DNA from: Micavibrio sp. UBA6145
GTDB taxonomy: Bacteria; Pseudomonadota; Alphaproteobacteria; Micavibrionales; UBA1664
Direction of reading: 5' to 3'
Length of the DNA: 64,000 nt
NCBI GenBank assembly: GCA_002423205.1
Contig: DIUZ01000002.1
Span: 129,409-193,408 of the forward strand
In this document: piece by piece, positions 4,610 through 64,000 of the stretch
Numbering within the stretch: position 1 is the stretch's first letter
Layout of the letters: each line of letters opens with the position of its first letter
The notes under the pieces: generated by a model
What the model was told of the DNA's origin: nothing
Seen by the model: the letters and a program-made list of their open reading frames with translations, nothing else
Database searches by the model: none
Program-made: the position numbers and the translations under genes

Positions 4610-6724
4610 ATGGCTAAAGACAAGAAAGTCGAAATTCCCGAACCGGCCCCGCCGGCACAGGACGTCACCACCACGGACGTCCCTGGTACCGTATACAAAT
4701 CGACCTTGCCCAAGGGCAGGATGATGTTTGGTGAAGCGATTGAAATCGACACCAACGAACGCATCCCGAAATATTCGAACATGTATGTAAGCGCCTATCC
4801 CGCAAAATCGCTGGGGACTGACGGGCGTGATTTCATCGCCTATGTGTGCGAACCGCAATACACGCCGCGTAACCGCCTGGGGCCTGCTTATGCGGCCGTC
4901 GCCAACCCGTCGTTGCTGCACCTGATCGGTTCGGGCATCGGCAAGATGCCGGACCACGGCATCAACCGTTTTGTATTCATCTACGAAAACGCGCTGGGCA
5001 AACCGATTGTTGAAACCGACCAGTATCTGGCCGTCGGCATGAAAAGCGAACGCGTGATGGAAAAAATCGTCACGCCGATGATTTCCGTCCTCAAGGACCT
5101 GCGCGACCACGACATCGTGCATGGTGCCATTCGTGCCACCAACATGTTTGACGGCGGCAAGGAACATTACGATCACGTGGTTCTGGGTGAGGGGCTGTCG
5201 CTTCCCCCGTCCATGTCCCAGCCGATGATTTACGAACCCGTGGACCGCGCACTGGCGCAACCGACGGGCCGCGGCCTTGGCACCAATCAGGATGATCTGT
5301 ATTCGCTGGGCGTCACTATCGCGATGCTCTTGCGCAGCAAAGACCCGATGAAGGGTAAAACCGACGCCGAAATCATCCAGAACAAGATGCAATACGGCAC
5401 GTATTCCACGCTGCTGGGCTCTGACGAACACATCTCAAGCGCGATGCTGGAACTGCTGCGCGGTCTTCTGCATGACGACCGCAACGCGCGCTGGACACTG
5501 GACGAGGTGCTGACATGGATGGATGGCCGCCGCCTGAGCCCAAAACAATCAGCAAAGAAACTTCGCGCCGCGCGTCCGATGGAATTCAACGGCAAAACCT
5601 ATTCGTTTCCGTCCGCACTTGCGCGCGATCTGTTTCAACGCCCGTCCGAAGCCGTACAGCTGATCGAAAGCGGTGACCTGTACCAGTGGATTAAACGCTC
5701 GCTGGACGATGAAATGATGCTTAACCGTTTCGATGCTGCCGTAAGCTCGGCGGAAGAAGCCGGGCGCGGCAATGGTTACTGGGATCGTCTTCTGTCGCGC
5801 ATCGTCATCTGCCTCGATCCTGACGGCCCTATCCGTTACAAAAACGTATCGCTGACGGGGGAGGGAATATCAACCGCGTTGGCCGAAGCTTTCGTTACCA
5901 ACCAGAACCTTCCGATCTACGCTGAATTGTTTTCAGGCACGCTGTTGTCCTACTGGATGACAACGCTGACTGATCTGAATTACGACATGGCGGGGTTCGT
6001 CACCCGGTTTGAGCCGTCGCGCAACTACATCAAACAACCCGGCCCCGGCTTCGGGCTTGAGCGCGTCCTGTACTACCTCAATCCGGATGTGCATTGTCTC
6101 TCGCCGGCGGTCAGCCGTTACTACGCCCGTTCGCCCGAAGAATTCCTGAATGCCTGCGAAGAAATGGCCGCCGATCCCGCGCGTCGTCCTGCCCGCCTGA
6201 TGGACCGTCATTCCATCGCCTTTCTGTGCGTGAAGGACCGTAAAGTCGCTGAACCCTATCTGTACGACCTGGCATCGAACGAACCGTATCGTTATGCGCT
6301 GGGCACGTTGCAATGTCTGGCGGCGATCCAGAAATATTACCGCATCCCCATGCTCAAAAACCTGACGCAATGGATGTCTGAATTCATCGAACCCGTATTC
6401 GCGCGTTTCCATGACCGCGACGTGCGCCGTGACCTTCGTAAAAAGGTCAACGAAGTGCGCGACAAGGGCGACCTGAACAAATTGCTGGCCGTGCTCGATA
6501 ACGCCGAACTGTTGCGCAGCGATCTCACCAATTTCCGCTATGCCATGCGCCATTACCGCGCATTGGTGGCCGAACGCGAAGACCTGACCATGCGCGTCAA
6601 TGACAGCAAGTTTTATGGCCGCCGCGAAGGACGTGAGACAGCTGTAATTGTCGCCGGCCTGATCGCGACCGTCCTGATGGCTGGCATCGTTATTCTTTAT
6701 CTGAACGGCGCGAGGATCCTGTAA
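4610..6724 (+). CDS. Membrane-anchored protein-kinase-like protein, predicted catalytically inactive
   Basis: 704 aa. Kinase C-lobe signatures are present (DLYSLGVTIAMLL; LLHDDRNARWTLDEVLTW). The catalytic loop reads HGAIRATN instead of HRDxKxxN, and no DFG or VAIK-type lysine is evident. A C-terminal TM segment is present (AVIVAGLIATVLMAGIVILYL). Confidence 0.6.
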   Translation: MAKDKKVEIPEPAPPAQDVTTTDVPGTVYKSTLPKGRMMFGEAIEIDTNERIPKYSNMYVSAYPAKSLGTDGRDFIAYVCEPQYTPRNRLGPAYAAVANPSLLHLIGSGIGKMPDHGINRFVFIYENALGKPIVETDQYLAVGMKSERVMEKIVTPMISVLKDLRDHDIVHGAIRATNMFDGGKEHYDHVVLGEGLSLPPSMSQPMIYEPVDRALAQPTGRGLGTNQDDLYSLGVTIAMLLRSKDPMKGKTDAEIIQNKMQYGTYSTLLGSDEHISSAMLELLRGLLHDDRNARWTLDEVLTWMDGRRLSPKQSAKKLRAARPMEFNGKTYSFPSALARDLFQRPSEAVQLIESGDLYQWIKRSLDDEMMLNRFDAAVSSAEEAGRGNGYWDRLLSRIVICLDPDGPIRYKNVSLTGEGISTALAEAFVTNQNLPIYAELFSGTLLSYWMTTLTDLNYDMAGFVTRFEPSRNYIKQPGPGFGLERVLYYLNPDVHCLSPAVSRYYARSPEEFLNACEEMAADPARRPARLMDRHSIAFLCVKDRKVAEPYLYDLASNEPYRYALGTLQCLAAIQKYYRIPMLKNLTQWMSEFIEPVFARFHDRDVRRDLRKKVNEVRDKGDLNKLLAVLDNAELLRSDLTNFRYAMRHYRALVAEREDLTMRVNDSKFYGRREGRETAVIVAGLIATVLMAGIVILYLNGARIL

Positions 6725-7197: not shown

Positions 7198-8588
7198 TTA
7201 AGCGACCGCGGGTAAAATCTGCGGCTGTGTGCGTGCGGCGGCCTTGCGCATATGCGGCCACGCAATGTCCTTGCGGTGCTTTTGGGAATGATCCGTGTAA
7301 ACACCCTGTCCATTGGCATCTGTAACCATCAACTGGTTCAGTACCGGCCATGGGTCTTCTTTGCCAATCCGGTCGGCTGCGCGGCGTAAATGCGTGTGCT
7401 CAGCCTGGTCTATCGACCCTTGCGCGAAGCGCGTGGTGGCAATTTCGTGCAATGTGCCGGCCAGCTTGGCCGTGTTATCGGCGACATTCAGCGCCGCCAC
7501 ATAAAATACCTTGTGCAGATTGGCCGGCGTGCAGTCCATCGGGTTGGACGATGGAAATTTATGGATCTCATCCGTGCCGGGGCGCGGGATGATCGATCGG
7601 TTAAAAGATGTGATGGCCGGGCTGCCCGTGACGGCCATGGTTTGCGGATCATAATGGCGTTCCATGTCGCGGCGGTCCTGTTCCTGCGCGCTGCGCTTTG
7701 TTGCGTGCAGGCTGCTGTATTCATTGGGGCTGACGGCGGCCATAAATCCGGCGCGTTGCTGTCTGGCATGGTCATACGGCATGTCTGAAAGGTCGCCTGT
7801 ACCAAAAAACAGCGTCCGTACCACGGCGTTATCGGTGGAGGCCAGCGTTCGCGCACCGCCAAGCGTATGACGCGCAATTGACCCGAAAGCGGATTTTATG
7901 CTTTCCACAGCCGACCCCCTGATGGCGGCGTGCAAAGCCCTTTGACGCGCTTTGAGCGCGGCATCCAGCTCCTTGTGAATTTGCCCGGCCGAAACAATGG
8001 CCCCGTTATCGCGGTAATGCGATCCGTTGAGAAGATGGGGTTCAAACACGCCGGGAATCGACGTGGTCGCCATGGCGCCGTCCATAAGCGGCGTGCTGCC
8101 GTTGACCAGCGGAATTTTCAGCGCACTGACGTCGAACAGGTCGCCATGCAGGCAACCCAGAAGTTCATCGCGCTTTTTGGTCATGTTATGCGCGCTCACC
8201 AGAAGTGAAATCGGCAATTCACCCATGGTACGTTCGCCGAAATGCATCTCCAGCATCCTGCGCAGGATGGCGTGATTGTAATGATCGACCAGAAAGTTCC
8301 TGCCCAGGCTTCTATTAATGATCTGGTTGCGGACCAGATTGCTGGACGGTCTATCATATCCATGGAACAGGCATAGGTGCTGTACATCAGGCGCGCGGCC
8401 GGCGCATCGGCAGCAAGCGATTCAGCGTTGAGCCCGCCCATGGATGAACCGCTCAGGACATCAACAAGGGACCGGAAGGGGCGCTGGATTTTAGCTTCGA
8501 TATAAGCCGCGTAAAAAGAGCCCAGCAGGCCCCAGGGACCACCGCTGTCGAAATACGCGTTATAGGCGACATATGTGCCACGGCTCAT
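7198..8588 (-). pseudogene. Patatin-like phospholipase interrupted by a frameshift
   Basis: ORF 8196-8588 carries the N-terminal oxyanion region (FDSGGPWG) and the GxSxG serine (GSSMG). ORF 7198-8256, in another frame, continues with patatin-like sequence (NFLVDHYNHAILRRMLEMHFGERTMGELPISLLVSAHN..., TSIPGVFEP..YRDNG). The frames switch around 8260-8345. Confidence 0.6.
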
Positions 8589-8650
8589 GCACCCCTATAG
8601 TCCGCGAGATTCGGGTTCCATTACAACCGGCAGCGCAGCAAAGTGAAGGT

Positions 8651-9847
8651 TTAACGGCGCTCGTCGCCAAGGACCCCACCCGTCAGGGCATGGACCGTGC
8701 GCTTGAGGGTCTTCATGAAATCGTTCTGCTGGGTGTGCTTGCGGTCGCGGTTGGACACAAGGATATGGCACAGCTCATCGAACTGGGTTTTGTTGTCTTC
8801 CAGGATGATATGCGCAAAACGTTCCAGCCGGGCCATATTTTCAGGCGTGGCATCGTCAATATCGACGGACGGCAGGGATTCGCCCGGAATGGGCACCAGC
8901 ATGGACCGGTTGAACATGAACAGGTCGCGGCCCAGTTCCTTGCCGAAAGATTCCATCATCGCGCTTTCGGAGGCATGGAAGAAAATATTGATCAGCGGCA
9001 AATCGTTGGCCGGGTCAACGACTCCCAGCGCGCCAAACCGGTTCCATTCGTCCTTATGAATGGGGCGGTTGGTAATGCCGGTACCAAGACAGACCATGAT
9101 CGGCTGGTAATCTTCCGGCACGTGCGGCTTGATCGCGCCCTGATACGAAATACACGGGTTATCAAAGATCGACCCGTCAATCGCGTGCACGGTGCGCCAT
9201 GTGCCGTTATTCGGGTCATAGGCGGAAAAATCATGACACGGGAAATATGTGGGCGCGGCGGCCGATGCCATCACCGCGTCGTACAGCGTCACGTCCAGCG
9301 GCTTGGCCGTTGTGGGGTTGTAGGCAGGCGATTTGATATTTTTAAGCCACATGGCAGAGCCGCCCACGCGTCCCTCGCGGTCTTCACCGCCAAGGGAATA
9401 ACAGGGGATGACCAGCGATGTAACGGAATCGCCCAGCTTGGCATCCCCGTAAAGCGCATACAGCGCCTTGGCCAGATGGCGTGCGCTGTAATGGCCATGG
9501 CGCATCATCTGCGAGAGTTTGGTGATTTTGACGGTACGGTTGTTGAAGTCATGCAGCAATCCGCGGAATTCACGGAAGCGGTCATACGGGAAGATCGATG
9601 CGCCTTCGCGTTCGTAAAACCGGATCATGTGCTTGGCCTTGTATTGCGGCTCAAACGGGCGGCGGCGGTGCGGACGGGTCAGGGCGGCATTCAGGATGGA
9701 ACCCGTGGACGGGCCGGTGAAAAGATCAACCATTTCGGCCATGCCAAGGCCTGTGCGGCTTTCGATAGCCGCCATGATGTGCGCCGGGACTAACCCGCGC
9801 ATGCCCCCGCCATAGGTGAAAAGAGCGATGAAGGTATTCGTGCTCAC
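8651..9847 (-). CDS. Patatin-like phospholipase
   Basis: 398 aa with GGGMRG (oxyanion hole), GPSTG (GxSxG nucleophile) and AIDGSIFDNP (catalytic Asp). Confidence 0.85.
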   Translation of the reverse strand: MSTNTFIALFTYGGGMRGLVPAHIMAAIESRTGLGMAEMVDLFTGPSTGSILNAALTRPHRRRPFEPQYKAKHMIRFYEREGASIFPYDRFREFRGLLHDFNNRTVKITKLSQMMRHGHYSARHLAKALYALYGDAKLGDSVTSLVIPCYSLGGEDREGRVGGSAMWLKNIKSPAYNPTTAKPLDVTLYDAVMASAAAPTYFPCHDFSAYDPNNGTWRTVHAIDGSIFDNPCISYQGAIKPHVPEDYQPIMVCLGTGITNRPIHKDEWNRFGALGVVDPANDLPLINIFFHASESAMMESFGKELGRDLFMFNRSMLVPIPGESLPSVDIDDATPENMARLERFAHIILEDNKTQFDELCHILVSNRDRKHTQQNDFMKTLKRTVHALTGGVLGDERR

Positions 9848-56835: not shown

Positions 56836-57819
56836 TTAAAAACGCAAGCCAATCCGGGAAAGAAAAGGCTTTTTCCGGATCGGTTGCCTGAGCGATCCGA
56901 TAAGGTCTGTGAACGATGTCTTTAGATAGTGTTCGGCGTGATCGGACATGCTGCTGCCCAGGCGTGTGATTTCGCCCAAAGTCAAAGTATCGATGGACAA
57001 GCCGTAAGGACGTAAGGATTCTTCGAAGAGGCGCAGGCAATCATCGGCATTCAGATTCATGCCGTCTTTGCGCGCGGAGGCTTCAAATCGCTGGCCCAGA
57101 TAAACACGGATGGGTGTTTGCATGTACACGCCGCGTTCCCAGTACGAAACATTCTCCTGTCTGAGGTGATGAGGACCGAACGTGCCTTCGACAGCGGCGG
57201 CCAGTACGCGCCCGCCATTTGCTTCCAGAAAACTGATCAGGCTTGCGAACGTCGTGCCTTGTTCGCTGTAATCGTCGATGACGACGAAATTTGCAGGCGC
57301 AGAGCCTGATATCAGAAAAGGCGCTTTTTTCGTCTGCAGGGATGGGTCAACGCCGTAGGTCTGCGCTTTTGAAAAGGCATAAGATGAATGCTGGTGGCGC
57401 GTGCGCTTGCCGCGTTTAAGGGCGGAACGTTCATAAATCGCGTCCATCATGACCCAGTTGATATGTGGCGCCAGTTTGCGTGCGCGTTTCATGAACGTGG
57501 CCGCGCTGGCATGCGCGCCGTTGACGTGCAGCGGCCTGTGTACGGGATGCTTGTGCGGATAGGCGATGTAGATCGTCTGCGGCTGGCTTGGATCGATATC
57601 CAGTTTTCTAAGTTCGGTCTGGATATTTTCCCACAGTCTGGATGCGCGGCTAGACTCGTCTGTGAGGAGGGTGGTGAGTTGGGGAAAGTCTTCCCGTATA
57701 GATGTGCGGACGGAGGGATTGGTAAATGAACGGGCCCGCGCATTCATGGCCGCGCGCAGGCCGATGCCAGGCCCGTGAAACGCCAGATACGCGATGTTGT
57801 TGAGTCCCAAACCAGTCAT
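56836..57819 (-). CDS. Orphan protein with a phosphoribosyltransferase-type PRPP-binding motif
   Basis: 327 aa with NFVVIDDYSEQGTTF (hydrophobic-DD-x3-x-G-T-T). I do not recognise the flanking N- and C-terminal regions. Confidence 0.5.
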   Translation of the reverse strand: MTGLGLNNIAYLAFHGPGIGLRAAMNARARSFTNPSVRTSIREDFPQLTTLLTDESSRASRLWENIQTELRKLDIDPSQPQTIYIAYPHKHPVHRPLHVNGAHASAATFMKRARKLAPHINWVMMDAIYERSALKRGKRTRHQHSSYAFSKAQTYGVDPSLQTKKAPFLISGSAPANFVVIDDYSEQGTTFASLISFLEANGGRVLAAAVEGTFGPHHLRQENVSYWERGVYMQTPIRVYLGQRFEASARKDGMNLNADDCLRLFEESLRPYGLSIDTLTLGEITRLGSSMSDHAEHYLKTSFTDLIGSLRQPIRKKPFLSRIGLRF

Positions 57820-57873
57820 ATTTTACATAATTACAATATTAAGGAGTGAATTGGCAAGCTCTTTCTCAAGAAA

Positions 57874-57909
57874 AAGCCCGGCTGATAAAGCCGGGGGTAT
57901 AGAGATAGG
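57874..57909 (+). repeat. Hairpin plus GGTATAGAGATAGG repeat, copy 1
   Basis: aagCCCGGCTgataaAGCCGGGggtatagagatagg. Compare with copy 2 at 60478-60513. Confidence 0.6.
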
Positions 57910-58024
57910 CGATACAGTTCCGATTTCTGACCACACCTATCAGACTAAAAATACAAACAACCGCCCCCTTCACTGGCAGCGGTTGTTTTTTTGTTATCGG
58001 CATTGGAATCAATCACTTATCCAT

Positions 58025-58194
58025 CCTCTCGCATTGTGATATTGGACGGTGATCGCAGCATTACTTTCGATGCTCTGGAATGGCTATCAGCACAGGGCGT
58101 GGCTTTGGTTCAAATCAATTGGCAGGGTAGGCCAGCCCCCTATTCTTATATGCGGGGTGTGGCCGCTAAATTCGAAGCGGACTTGGGTTGCTGA
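58025..58194 (+). pseudogene. cas1 relic (about 35 well-conserved codons, then a diverged tail)
   Basis: Translation SRIVILDGDRSITFDALEWLSAQGVALVQINWQG matches residues of the intact Cas1 (SRIVILDGDGSITFDALQWLSAQGVALVQINWQG). By hand alignment, 95 of 104 nt are identical to the reverse complement of 63026-63129. Confidence 0.75.
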
Positions 58195-60378: not shown

Positions 60379-60876
60379 TCAGGTCCAAACCCGTACATAG
60401 GCCGTGAAGGAACTGTGCAGCGCGATAATGGATCTGGTGGCGGTGGCGGCTCCTAAGTCCCTGCCCTGATATACGAGAAGCCCGGGTCTAACGCCCGGAG
60501 GTATAGAGATAGGTGTCCGTATTTTTTGAGTGTCAATGTAAGTAAAAAAATCGGAAAAATGATTATGCCATTCAGACTGATCTTCTGAGATAAAAGCTCT
60601 AACAGCTTTAGAACCCATGTCATCTATTTCGCCAAACAGTTTTCTCTCAATTTCGTCGTTAATAAATGATCCGAAAAAAGTTGCGTAAAGATCAGTTTGA
60701 TAAAAACATTGGGAGGTATTCCAGAATTTTAGGCTGTTTAGAGCTTTGAAATCTCCGTTTGGAAGCGAAATTTTATCCGGGGCCAAATCGAGGTAGCAGA
60801 GCTTATCCGTAGGATTGAATAGGAACCCCTTCTGATACCACTGTGGAACATAATGATTAGCGCGCGTTGTGGACAT
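60379..60876 (-). pseudogene. Truncated DUF4238-family gene
   Basis: The N-terminus NHYVPQWYQKGF matches the DUF4238 signature. Protein-like sequence ends near residue 120, where repeat copy 2 (60478-60513) begins. Family members are usually much longer. Confidence 0.5.
60478..60513 (+). repeat. Hairpin plus GGTATAGAGATAGG repeat, copy 2
   Basis: aagcCCGGGtctaacgCCCGGaggtatagagatagg. Same orientation as copy 1, with a different stem sequence that still pairs. Confidence 0.6.
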
Positions 60877-61187: not shown

Positions 61188-61640
61188 ATGAAACGAATAG
61201 GAAAATATCTTATAGTTTGCGCCGTCATGGGTTTGGCAGCTTGCGCTTCTCCGGCGGCGCAAATGTCACCGCAGCAAATTTCTTCTTTATCCAATCAGCA
61301 GCTATGCGATCTCCAGAATAATTATCTGTGGGATCAGAACACAGAAATTGAAATTGGACGCAGAAATCTAAATTGCGATCCGATTTACAATGAATGTCTT
61401 TTGAGGGGCATGAAACCGGATGGTCCGGAAATGGCTTTATGCATGAATCAAATTCGTGAAACTCAGGCATTACAAGCAAAAGTCGCTCAACAGCAAAGAG
61501 AGTTAGAAACTGAACGCACCCTCAATGAAATGAGAGCAGGAAACCAGCAACAGCAAAATCAAGTAATTGTAGTTCAGCCTGGTTCACAGCGAAAAGCTAA
61601 CACTTCACCATTTTGCCCTACTTTCCCTTACTGTAACTAA
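61188..61640 (+). CDS. Lipoprotein with a Gln-rich coiled-coil-like C-terminal half
   Basis: Lipobox GLAACAS. RBS AAGGGAAAGGG upstream. 150 aa. Confidence 0.6.
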   Translation: MKRIGKYLIVCAVMGLAACASPAAQMSPQQISSLSNQQLCDLQNNYLWDQNTEIEIGRRNLNCDPIYNECLLRGMKPDGPEMALCMNQIRETQALQAKVAQQQRELETERTLNEMRAGNQQQQNQVIVVQPGSQRKANTSPFCPTFPYCN

Positions 61641-61981
61641 ACAGAGGCGGGGAAACCTGCCTCTGTTTTTTTAAGGTCTGTCAAATATGCGTGTGCACGT
61701 ATTAATATATTCTCGTTACTTCTGCGATCTGTAAGAATTTTGGCCATATTTGAAGCATCCATGTCCAGTGCTGCGGCAAGGGCGCGGATGGAAATATTTT
61801 TCTCTTTCATTTTGTCGCGGATTTTATCGAGTGTTGATTTTTGTTCCGCACTTTTGATTTCAAGAATTTTTATGGCGCGGTGAATTTTCATCAGCGTTTT
61901 ATTGGACGGATTAGCTCGACCTTTTGAAATCTTCAATACGTAGCGTTCCGATAAATTCGCGAGTTCTGCCAAGTTCGGCAT
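61637..61981 (-). CDS. Small helix-turn-helix protein downstream of cas1
   Basis: Start trimmed to MPNLAELANLSERYVLKISKGRANPS... It has two XRE-like HTH-type segments; the second is ISIRALAAALDMDASNMAKIL. Confidence 0.5.
   Translation of the reverse strand: MPNLAELANLSERYVLKISKGRANPSNKTLMKIHRAIKILEIKSAEQKSTLDKIRDKMKEKNISIRALAAALDMDASNMAKILTDRRSNENILIRAHAYLTDLKKTEAGFPASV
61641..61672. terminator. Intrinsic terminator between convergent genes
   Basis: ACAGAGGC-ggggaaacct-GCCTCTGT-TTTTTT. Confidence 0.7.
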
Positions 61982-62206
61982 ATTTCTGCAGAATTTCAGA
62001 GGGTGTAAATTTAAATAAAGCCGCATTAAGGGTTTTCCCCTTTTTCCAAAAATTCAGTAATTCTTGCGGGGAGTGGTTATTATCCAAGAATTGCCTCTGG
62101 CATAAATTCAATATATTCAGGCCCAATTTTATGGGGGCTCACCGAAATATAAAGGAAATTATTAAGGCCGTATTTTGAAATAATTCAATTAATTAGGCCA
62201 AATTAG

Positions 62207-63394
62207 CTAAATCGAATTATTTACAATGCTCAATTCTGGTGAATTTTGGCTGTTTACAGCCTTTTTGGATATATTGCCGCCAAATAGCTTTTTCAAATTA
62301 GCGGCAGTTATAGTCTCTATTTCAGGCATATCTTGAACCAATTTCACAATGACGCGGGCAAATTGAGGATGAAGGCGGCATATTCCGTTTTTATTCAAAA
62401 TAAAATCATCCGGCGAAAACGTATGCTTAATAACAAAATCCAGTACTTTCTGATCCATGACCGGGCGTACGGGCTCCATAAGGTCAAATACCAATGAAGG
62501 GCGGTTATTACCGCTGGAGTGCATGTAGCTAATTGTAGGATCAATCCCCATAGCCAATATCTGCCCCCGTACTTGATTTTCTAATACGGCATAGACGTAA
62601 TTTAAAATGGCATTGACCGGGTGCAGGGCAAACTGGTTACTATCGTTAGAGCCAATCCTTGTTCCTACGCGTAACCATTCTTGTGGAACTGGTTTCCGGC
62701 CAAGGCCTTTCCACTTTAAAGATAGCGTGTACCAGTATCGGAAATAGGCTGCCGCCGCGATTCCTTCGACAGCCAAAAGTGAATTTAAATTGACGGGTGG
62801 ATTTTTCTTTAAGGCCAAAATTTGAGCCTCTATTTTCTGCAATATCAATTCACCTTCAGGAGAATTGTCTGAAATACGTTTTATAGTTTCATGGCAATTT
62901 TCTATTTTTTTGAGAATAAGCCATTTTGAAAATTCAAAACCTTCACCGTTGTCTCGAATTTCTAACTGCCTTTTCACTAAGTCTGGGTTAGCGGCATAAT
63001 CTGCTTGTCCAATACTGGCCAGATGACCCTGCCAATTGATTTGAACCAAAGCGACACCCTGTGCTGATAGCCATTGCAAGGCATCAAAAGTGATACTGCC
63101 ATCACCGTCCAATATCACAATGCGAGAGGGTAATTGGCGGTCTCGCGGGAAAAAGCGGTGTTCTTCCCGCTCTTGCGGATAATGAGTGAACCCACATTTT
63201 ATCAATAATGTGCCGCGATCTATATTCAGCCGGATACCATGGCCGCTCAATACAAGCGGCTTGTGCAATATGCGGCGTTTCCGGGCTTTGTACTGGGGAA
63301 CGGGGTTTAATTTTTTCTGCCAATATTCGCCACGTTCCGCCCATGCGTTATCATTGTCATTCTGGCTGGTGGTGTTCGTAAGAGGCAAATTCAT
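62207..63394 (-). CDS. cas1: Cas1-family integrase/endonuclease, stand-alone in this window
   Basis: 395 aa. N-terminal beta-domain pattern (VLSGHGIRLNIDRGTLLI...RIVILDGDGSITFDALQWLSAQGVALVQINWQG). Catalytic helical domain with LLAVEGIAAAAYF (Glu), NAILNYVYAVL, GIDPTISYMHSSG (His) and LVFDLMEPVRPVMD (Asp/Glu). Confidence 0.85.
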   Translation of the reverse strand: MNLPLTNTTSQNDNDNAWAERGEYWQKKLNPVPQYKARKRRILHKPLVLSGHGIRLNIDRGTLLIKCGFTHYPQEREEHRFFPRDRQLPSRIVILDGDGSITFDALQWLSAQGVALVQINWQGHLASIGQADYAANPDLVKRQLEIRDNGEGFEFSKWLILKKIENCHETIKRISDNSPEGELILQKIEAQILALKKNPPVNLNSLLAVEGIAAAAYFRYWYTLSLKWKGLGRKPVPQEWLRVGTRIGSNDSNQFALHPVNAILNYVYAVLENQVRGQILAMGIDPTISYMHSSGNNRPSLVFDLMEPVRPVMDQKVLDFVIKHTFSPDDFILNKNGICRLHPQFARVIVKLVQDMPEIETITAANLKKLFGGNISKKAVNSQNSPELSIVNNSI

Positions 63395-63607
63395 AGCAGT
63401 AAATTAGCAATTTTAGCCGTCATTCGCCATAGCTAAGCTATTGATTTCAGTGTAGAAAGTGAAAAAACTGCGACTAGGTTTCAAAAACTAGAAGCAACTC
63501 CCAAGTACTAATGAACGTAGGCCAAAAGGATAAAACAGAATTATTGCTTTTATTTTACATAACTTTAATGTATCTTCTGCCTTAACTAATAACGATTGGA
63601 GAAAATC

Positions 63608-64000
63608 ATGTCTATTGTGGAAGCACGTGTATTTACAGACAGCAGTGATGTCGCGCTATCAAATGCAAAATATAATAAATTCGACGAGAAATATCTTCAT
63701 AGCAAAAGCGTTGAGCATTTATCTCTTCTAAAAGAGAAACTAGGTTCCGATATTAAAATAGAACTAGGTTTGGCATTTATGTTCACCACCCTGGGCGTAA
63801 CATCACTAGGATATGCAGTTGGAGCACCAACAATGTTGCAAAGCACCCCGCAACTAGGCTTGGCAGTACAGGCTGTAACAAGCGCTATGGCGGTGGGATC
63901 GGCATACTTTCTGGCCAGAACATTTTTTGCAGCCGTAAATAATGATACGAACCGCGACGATGTTAAAAAAATCTTAACGAAAAAAGCAGTGAACCCCACT
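63608..64000 (+). CDS. Hypothetical membrane protein (partial; runs off the window end)
   Basis: Hand translation from the ATG at 63608 (RBS GGAG 7 nt upstream): MSIVEARVFTDSSDVALSNAKYNKFDEKYLHSKSVEHLSLLKEKLGSDIKIELGLAFMFTTLGVTSLGYAVGAPTMLQSTPQLGLAVQAVTSAMAVGSAYFLARTFFAAV... There is no stop before 64000. It has two hydrophobic segments and is AT-rich. It is not in the ORF track. Confidence 0.5.
   Translation, partial: MSIVEARVFTDSSDVALSNAKYNKFDEKYLHSKSVEHLSLLKEKLGSDIKIELGLAFMFTTLGVTSLGYAVGAPTMLQSTPQLGLAVQAVTSAMAVGSAYFLARTFFAAVNNDTNRDDVKKILTKKAVNPT

Follow-up and report, generated by a model that had tools for sequence, protein, structure and literature searches.

Casposons are defined by the combination of Cas1 with a family B DNA polymerase (PolB), HNH and helix-turn-helix (HTH) proteins, and about a dozen have been published so far from bacteria. 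Those of family 3 were described from Henriciella, Hyphomonas, Citromicrobium, and Nitrosomonas, with HenMar-C1 of Henriciella marina and the elements of Hyphomonas sp. CY54-11-8, Citromicrobium bathyomarinum JL354, and Nitrosomonas sp. AL212 as examples (Krupovic et al. 2014, PMC4046053; 2016, PMC4779613). In archaeal casposons, tandem arrays and adjacent remnants have been documented (PMC4046053, PMC4779613), and the family 2 casposase of M. mazei is represented by PDB entry 6OPM, 'Casposase bound to integration product' (Hickman et al. 2020, PMC6977970). Here we analyze a 64,000-nucleotide stretch of DNA (the window) from Micavibrio sp. UBA6145 (contig DIUZ01000002.1, positions 129,409 to 193,408), in which an earlier note, made from the sequence alone, had drawn attention to a stand-alone cas1 gene beside a small HTH gene. 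We find that this cas1 is very probably the casposase of a degraded, family-3-type bacterial casposon in a Micavibrio-related alphaproteobacterium. The exact Cas1 protein also occurs on a 511-kb metagenome contig, from which locus L001 adds 9.4 kb past the window end; the contig is present in samples ERZ27315062, SRR942940, SRR943323, and JGI 3300040964 and 3300038387. Positions on it are converted to window equivalents (73395 minus the L001 position), and the extension reaches window-equivalent 73394.

The 395-aa product of cas1 matched Pfam Cas_Cas1 over residues 51-354 (E 5e-42) and scored 124 bits against the generic NCBIfam cas1 model TIGR00287 (cut-off 71.7). All of the CRISPR-subtype Cas1 models (eight subtype-specific ones listed) stayed below their cut-offs, the top one, Cas4g/Cas1g, reaching 104 bits against a cut-off of 560. 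A sequence search of the PDB ranked the M. mazei casposase, 6OPM, first (E 1.3e-40), 12 orders of magnitude ahead of the best CRISPR Cas1 (E 2.3e-28), and Foldseek also returned 6OPM as the top fold match (E 1.4e-18). The catalytic residues E210, H292, D304, and E307 were unchanged throughout an alignment of 30 homologs with identities down to 42%, so the earlier description of a Cas1 pattern with its catalytic residues in place holds. The N-terminal extension of about 45 aa, which the note had set apart from canonical Cas1, is real as well, but is a trait of the whole family, with W18, R21, and W25 invariant in the same alignment. An AlphaFold model places a low-confidence helix at residues 15-29 and is confident for the Cas1 body (mean pLDDT 80). 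Databases label the protein 'CRISPR-associated endonuclease Cas1'; judged by these sequence and fold comparisons, it is a member of the casposase clade and not a CRISPR Cas1 subtype. Its ratio of nonsynonymous to synonymous substitution rates (dN/dS), 0.07 at dS 0.81 against the ortholog in an intact casposon (L089), points to strong constraint on the casposase for most of its history, and the gene carries no lesion now.

More than 260 homologs of 370-410 aa are present in the protein collection, and at least 242 species-representative genomes, mostly of Alphaproteobacteria, carry a homolog; these 242 genome matches include Micavibrio (79%), Rickettsiales, Sphingomonadales, Hyphomonas, Henriciella, Citromicrobium, and Nitrosomonas. 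At 38-47% identity, homologs occur in Henriciella, Hyphomonas, Citromicrobium, and Nitrosomonas, the genera with published family 3 elements. Clustering the open reading frames (ORFs) within 5 kb of cas1 across 79 non-redundant loci, we found three recurrent partners, of ~195, ~117, and 900-1100 aa. The largest is a PolB (PF00136 at 33 and 26.5 bits, cut-off 23; PF03175 at 35.7 bits, cut-off 25.8) that ends in a C-terminal HTH; a PDB sequence search with a relative's PolB returned no match. A PolB of at least 400 aa lies within 5 kb of cas1 at 47 of the 54 loci that have at least 6 kb on both sides. The ~117-aa partner shares an invariant CxxC..HH..CxNCH motif, with sub-threshold HNH matches in 6 of 12 members, and the ~195-aa partner has a weak HTH_17 match in relatives; Pfam found nothing significant in the ~250-aa and ~195-aa core genes. 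The closest Cas1 (P0002, 92% amino acid identity) lies inside L089, an intact 10.7-kb casposon bounded by terminal inverted repeats (TIRs), in which cas1 is followed, in this order, by genes for products of 252 aa, 195 aa, 119 aa (HNH-like), and 1030 aa (PolB), then by a reverse transcriptase gene and two unknown genes. All of the relatives at 92, 79, 77, 68, and 62% Cas1 identity reside in complete casposons.

The window copy differs in what follows cas1. The small HTH gene is a chimeric ORF of 129 aa (114 aa from an internal ATG) with Pfam HTH_3 and HTH_26 matches. Its residues 18-125 are the double-HTH tail from the C-terminus of a casposon PolB, and the first ~17 codons read across a deletion junction. 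By BLASTP, the ORF shares 44% identity with the L006 PolB (1033 aa) over residues 922-1027 of the latter (E 3e-26). It also matches six full-length PolBs (1016-1103 aa) at their very C-terminal end and a 528-aa ORF of the polB cluster at its C-terminus, with 40-44% identity to the PolB tails of relatives. The earlier note was thus right about the ORF and its two HTH motifs but not about a separate HTH gene: the ORF is a C-terminal stump of PolB, the 3' end of the family B polymerase that the note could not find. A blastn match to L089 (86% nucleotide identity) spans cas1 and ~83 nt of the 252-aa gene and ends at L001 11390; homology to the PolB C-terminus (the last ~100 codons) begins at L001 11420. 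Frame analysis shows the 129-aa ORF opening in another frame inside the remnant of the 252-aa gene, with the PolB tail read from NLAELANLSERYVLK on. Most of the 252-aa gene was lost in the deletion, as were the ~195-aa and HNH-like genes and PolB residues 1 to ~915. What survives of polB, its last ~110 codons, is not the polymerase of a self-synthesizing element, and the HNH and conserved HTH proteins that family 3 has in common with family 2 are both missing from the window copy. Because polB is reduced in this way here and is present at the great majority of related loci counted above, we conclude that the window copy is a casposon derivative, not a complete casposon.

The casposase lies in a 6.3-kb island whose GC content, 43.5%, is below the 56-58% of the flanks, and related elements also have less GC than the genomes that host them. 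The earlier note reported no terminal inverted repeats, but the island has them: an 83-nt inverted repeat, 84% complementary (L001 9211-9293 and 15442-15524; 73 nt at 88% by blastn), takes in one TIR within the window and a partner ~100-160 bases past its end, which is why the pair was not seen from the window. Six related elements (L006, L007, L009, L011, L012, and L089) share this TIR in alignment. Its core across elements is GGTATAGWGATAGG-n6-AGTTCCGnTTTCTGACCAC, followed by a subterminal stem-loop, and the window contains the core pattern once, against 0 occurrences expected by chance. At both outer TIR edges stands a perfect 19/19 direct repeat, a target-site duplication (TSD) flagged as terminator-like (CCCGGCTTTATCAGCCGGG in the L001 orientation, at L001 9217-9235 and 15500-15518). 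The TSD starts 25 nt past the stop codon of rpsD, between a preceding A-run and a following T-run. We also considered the terminal hairpin as an outer part of the TIR carrying compensatory changes, and rejected this: its loops are identical in direct orientation, which makes it a perfect direct repeat (14-19 bp in these elements), as in a TSD, and its sequence varies by element, because the targets differ. Each TIR further holds an internal stem-loop with a T-run (consensus GACAGCCGCTATC...GGTAGCGGCTGTTTTT), conserved in position across the related elements and oriented as an inward-facing terminator; in L001 it lies at 9331-9357, window-equivalent 64038-64064.

The chorismate synthase of the host is 79-83% identical to those of Micavibrio spp., and by way of this enzyme we reached sister genomes in which it is 93% and 89% identical (L094 and L096). 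In both, a SpoU methylase gene follows 62-64 bp after rpsD, and a single hairpin occupies the homologous position between the two genes, its flanks being homologous too (gaaacacaaaaaGCCCGGCcttcaaGCCGGGtttttt in L096). The rpsD terminator target reconstructed from our locus, AAAAAGCCCGGCTTTATCAGCCGGGCTTTTT, folds at -21.4 kcal/mol (z -5.4), and it and both sister sites form terminator-like hairpins of -19 to -21 kcal/mol, with z of about -4 to -5. The perfect 19-bp TSD and the single hairpin in L094 and L096 therefore establish that the element integrated into the intrinsic terminator of rpsD and duplicated 19 bp. This is the mapping of boundaries by empty and occupied sites that the earlier note had proposed: a single hairpin there, a TSD-flanked island here. 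Its suggestion of an uncharacterized Cas1-dependent mobile element is accordingly correct as to mobile-element origin, given the TIRs, the 19-bp TSD, and the empty site, but not as to "uncharacterized", the element being of a known casposon type in degraded form. Two exact-pattern scans of metagenome contigs for an empty site found nothing, and a look-up of a 327-aa flank protein returned occupied sites only. The gene for this protein (window 56836-57819, minus strand) lies just outside the casposon end and has a weak PADLOC ShosT (PRTase-like) match (E 4e-6). It is missing from the rpsD-SpoU interval in both sister genomes, and is therefore a separate, strain-specific insertion beside the same hairpin.

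Similar targets recur among the relatives. The TSDs of L001, L006, L007, L009, L011, L012, L089, and ~10 more are palindromic and rich in GC, measure 14-21 bp, and lie between an A-run and a T-run, so that they resemble intrinsic terminators. In a crude survey, palindromic CCC...GGG duplications of 14-21 bp appeared in at least 17 elements, including the distant L048 of Kordiimonas and L059 of Henriciella. The TSD sequence is different at each insertion, so the casposase seems to recognize a hairpin-type target rather than a particular gene. We found no description of a palindromic terminator-hairpin target for bacterial (family 3) casposons in the open literature that we could search. Whether this casposon clade as a whole integrates specifically into GC-rich palindromic hairpins, namely intrinsic terminators, duplicating a palindrome of 14-20 bp such that two copies flank the insert, is a proposition we regard as evenly balanced. 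If it is general, the palindrome duplication has the geometry of spacer insertion at a palindromic CRISPR repeat and would offer a testable ancestor of that repeat within the casposon-origin model. Tandem and mosaic islands would be accounted for as well, since every insertion regenerates the target.

The database label and the score above the generic cas1 cut-off would also fit an outlying part or remnant of a CRISPR-Cas adaptation module, its array and other cas genes lying elsewhere, and the earlier note had listed such a remnant, as well as a CRISPR locus past position 64000, among its options. We searched for arrays by a k-mer periodicity scan, Rfam at gathering thresholds (CRISPR repeat families included), and Tandem Repeats Finder, and none was detected in the window, as the note had held for the 64 kb, or up to window-equivalent 73394. 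Pfam-annotated gene calls came from the same contig for window 18.9-64 kb and the 9.4 kb beyond, and from a separate 12-kb contig (L093) for window ~4-12 kb; window ~1-4 kb and ~12-18.9 kb were covered by the repeat-array scans only. Exact-protein look-ups for window 7198-8256 gave the 12-kb contig only, and those for 8573-9793 gave no record. No cas2, cas4, or effector gene was found among the annotated calls of these regions, which hold housekeeping and unannotated genes only, and the note's statement that cas1 has no such neighbors is upheld there. Past position 64000 come a 136-aa ORF, rpsD, a MacAB-TolC-type efflux operon, tRNAs, and methyltransferases. We therefore dismissed an array beyond the window, the 9.4-kb extension having been scanned by three methods; the cas2 and array, or full cas operon, just past the window end that the note said would make this an ordinary adaptation module were looked for in that extension and not found. 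There was no array within 10 kb of cas1 at any of 85 related loci either (86 sequences including the window). Periodic repeats near Cas1 in L032, L035, and L063 are head-to-tail coding repeats without spacers, and so are not CRISPR arrays. With all subtype models failing, 6OPM the best match by both sequence and fold, and a context of TIRs, TSD, and PolB that is a casposon context, the CRISPR reading is effectively refuted already, and we give it next to no weight. The casposase would then play no part in CRISPR immunity. On the island, PADLOC defense models gave generic Cas1 and weak HTH matches only, and no tyrosine, serine, or DDE recombinase was matched among its ORFs (Pfam, NCBIfam).

The interior of the island is a mosaic (Table 1). 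A 104-nt cas1 fragment beside the in-window TIR is identical to the resident cas1 at 95 of 104 positions and to that of L089 at 94 of 104; this near-equal identity indicates a third lineage rather than a recent copy of the resident gene, and we interpret the fragment as a relic of another casposon copy. A further, relic casposon end is oriented as the end at 57871, and its 14-mer tip occurs exactly twice in the window, where 0 occurrences are expected. The DUF4238 homology (60505-60858) stops at this relic end, abutting the TIR tip at 60500-60513. The 150-aa ORF is 53% identical over 151 aa to a gene at L089 9503-9979 (blastp, E 2e-49; inverted blastn match at 69%), whose product has a weak lipoprotein signal, and it sits across cas1 from the place of that homolog. 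The glycosyltransferase region has 45% GC, against 57% in the host, and neither the glycosyltransferase nor the isochorismatase-domain gene has a counterpart in the other fetched loci. The ORF between the casposase and the far TIR gave no Pfam, PADLOC, or related-locus match. Thus the island holds pieces of at least one, and probably two, further casposon copies as well as unrelated cargo.

Table 1. Features of the casposon island and its boundaries, in window coordinates
Feature	Position	Strand	Basis and remarks
TSD, in-window copy	57877-57895	.	CCCGGCTGATAAAGCCGGG on the window plus strand; half of the duplicated rpsD terminator hairpin
Casposon TIR, in-window end	57896-57953	+	Core GGTATAGAGATAGGCGATACAGTTCCGATTTCTGACCAC; subterminal stem-loop to ~57997
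104-nt fragment of a second, diverged cas1 (residues ~90-126)	58025-58128	+	Inverted relative to intact cas1; inverted repeat I1, 91% complementary to 63026-63129
Cargo, family 2 glycosyltransferase, 298 aa	58146-59042	-	Pfam Glycos_transf_2, E 4e-32; inside the TIR/TSD boundaries
Cargo, isochorismatase-domain protein, 269 aa	59541-60350	+	Pfam Isochorismatase, E 4e-13; inside the island
Truncated DUF4238 gene	60379-60876	-	Pfam DUF4238, 29 bits, residues 7-124; profile positions 2-110 of 281
Relic third casposon end	60478-60513	+	Different GC hairpin, then 14-nt TIR tip GGTATAGAGATAGG; direct repeat D2; inverted match to the far TIR
Predicted lipoprotein-like ORF, 150 aa	61188-61640	+	Homolog of the small L089 gene between left TIR and cas1; here inverted and displaced
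'Small HTH gene', chimeric ORF	61637-62026	-	BLASTP to PolB C-termini; HTH_3, HTH_26
Junction of the ~4.5-kb internal deletion	61975-62004	-	End of L089 homology, start of PolB homology, frame analysis
Remnant of the ~250-aa casposon gene, first ~28 codons	62004-62087	-	Translation LDNNHSPQELLNFWKKGKTLNAALFKFT, the N-terminus of the L089 252-aa protein; blastn to L006, L011, L089
Casposase (Cas1 homolog), intact, 395 aa	62207-63394	-	Pfam, NCBIfam, invariant residues, 6OPM matches, dN/dS
ORF of 136-140 aa, casposase to far TIR	63596-64000	+	Ends at window-equivalent 64018
Partner TIR	64102-64159 (window-equivalent, outside the window)		Outer tip 64159 beside the TSD copy at 64160-64178
TSD, outer copy	64160-64178 (window-equivalent, outside the window)		

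This arrangement shows that a casposon entered the intrinsic terminator of rpsD, a hairpin 25 nt past the gene, doubling 19 bp of the palindrome, and that an internal loss of ~4.5 kb stripped its core genes, leaving a PolB tail that is now read as a small HTH gene. On the simplest reading of the mosaic, casposons would have re-entered regenerated copies of the hairpin in both orientations, with deletions between copies following. Like the casposases that have been characterized, this one presumably keeps its fold and could cut DNA and join it at the TIRs. An element without its polymerase and HNH partner would most likely be immobile, and at best non-autonomous.

The mosaic could instead have moved as a unit: a Cas1-only or composite casposon lacking PolB, still mobile, would have entered the rpsD terminator with its ends taken from two casposon copies and cargo between them. 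Several features are compatible with this. The casposase is intact and was strongly constrained (dN/dS 0.07), the outer TIRs and the 19/19 TSD enclose the whole mosaic, and an internal relic end with another hairpin, together with a cas1 fragment of foreign lineage beside the outer TIR, looks composite-like. Casposases alone integrate TIR-ended DNA in vitro (PMC5137440, PMC6977970), and a 1.9-kb mini-element with a truncated cas1 between TIRs exists at L012. However, repeated insertion at the hairpin followed by internal deletions would yield the same end state, including a perfect outer TSD. The exact Cas1 with the PolB-less layout is found on eight contigs, all in a single context beside rpsD and belonging to one strain or population, and a second PolB-less copy was absent from all fetched loci. 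We therefore consider movement as a mosaic unlikely, though worth keeping in mind.

A more distant prospect is a domesticated Cas1-solo, in which the host would have kept the casposase and an HTH partner for repair, recombination, or defense. An intact cas1 amid deleted neighbors, an HTH tail that is still an open reading frame directly downstream, and an island that is identical in several metagenome samples could be taken as signs of retention. But the identical samples represent the same strain or population, the HTH ORF opens with codons derived from the junction and has just 40-44% identity to PolB tails, and the PolB-less layout occurs in no other species. A conserved cas1-HTH pair without PolB or TIRs was not found among the 242 genome matches, and the five relatives at 62-92% identity are full casposons. 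The confinement of the PolB-less layout to one strain or population, together with complete elements at these identities, argues for recent decay rather than domestication, which we regard as very improbable.

Degradation of a family-3-type casposon thus remains the reading we favor, and several points weigh against it. The assignment to family 3 is judged from genus overlap, gene content, and similarity, and homology together with the TIR/TSD footprint leads us to infer an integrase role for the casposase. Its gene is fully intact although the partner genes are lost, which could mean either a very recent deletion or continued selection for some function. Deletion or formation of the mosaic may have preceded integration or followed it. 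Finally, L094 and L096 also lack the 327-aa gene beside the island, and the empty site does not match base for base on the distal side.

Additional observations concern the relatives and the surrounding DNA. The reverse transcriptase of L089 (16684-18204, 506 aa; RVT_1, 40 bits) is cargo downstream of PolB, and sister genome L096 has a 468-aa reverse transcriptase between SpoU and a Y-family polymerase gene. The mini-element at L012 9037-10990, in a metagenome-assembled genome (MAG) of Pseudobdellovibrionaceae, consists of a TIR, a frameshifted and truncated cas1, and a second TIR, with a 17-bp hairpin TSD, and resembles a miniature inverted-repeat transposable element derived from a casposon. 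Cas1 (E 1e-40) and N6/N4 DNA methylase (E 4e-27) domains are fused in a single 968-aa ORF of a Chloroflexota MAG (L031 857-3763). Two casposase genes, L040 and L054, lie on one contig, CAVSSS010000008.1, and two copies each were found in Marinicauda salina (L073, L082), on CBDHFR010000004.1 (L061, L079), and in MAG CAWBLM01 (L036, L044; two contigs); in one two-casposase genome, the genes have opposite orientations and are separated by ~20 kb. In L035, cas1 lies in an inverted duplication of ~4 kb, 72% identical. Elsewhere in the window, 4610-6724 and its neighbors (L093) encode a patatin-like protein, a 704-aa protein with a weak protein-kinase match, and several large unannotated ORFs.

The stand-alone cas1 was correctly observed in the earlier note, and its explanation is ordinary: a degraded casposon of a known, under-sampled bacterial family. 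Our survey suggests that this family is far larger than published, with a Micavibrio-associated subclade that has well-defined TIRs. Its members carry the label 'CRISPR-associated endonuclease Cas1', and almost every one examined belongs to a casposon, so that tallies of cas1 in CRISPR surveys will overcount adaptation modules in these lineages. The hairpin target and its visible empty site provide a defined substrate for a first biochemical test of a family-3 casposase, and duplication of the hairpin is a natural parallel to duplication of the palindromic CRISPR repeat.

Among known systems, group 1 Cas1-solo genes of Methanomicrobiales resemble the window gene in being stand-alone cas1 genes outside CRISPR loci; they are archaeal with an incomplete catalytic tetrad (PMC4046053), whereas the window Cas1 has all four residues and is bacterial. 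With CRISPR Cas1 it shares the fold, the active site, and duplication, on integration, of a short and often palindromic sequence, but it has no cas2, array, or effector, fails the subtype models, and is encoded between transposon TIRs. It has the two-domain Cas1 architecture and catalytic residues of the family 2 casposase of M. mazei, and family 2 PolBs also bear a C-terminal HTH (PMC4046053). The identity to that casposase is 25-26%, however, and the C-terminal HTH of the family 2 casposase itself is missing here. The family 2 target is the 3' end of tRNA genes, with a palindrome in the leader and not in the duplicated segment (PMC5137440). The locus also resembles the casposons of M. burtonii and M. 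psychrophilus in having remnants of further copies adjacent. With family 3 casposons it shares a Cas1 with the full catalytic tetrad, relatives that carry PolB, an HNH-like nuclease, and HTH proteins, TIRs and a TSD, intergenic insertion, variable cargo, and bacterial, mostly alphaproteobacterial, hosts. It differs from them in that the window copy retains no polB beyond the HTH tail and has lost the HNH-like gene along with two further core genes, and in belonging to a Micavibrio-associated subclade whose Cas1 is ~40% identical to the Henriciella and Hyphomonas matches. In this subclade a double HTH is fused to the C-terminus of PolB and the casposase has the conserved ~45-aa N-terminal extension. 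The target that is duplicated is a palindromic terminator hairpin, of which we found no mention for family 3 in the open literature that we could search.

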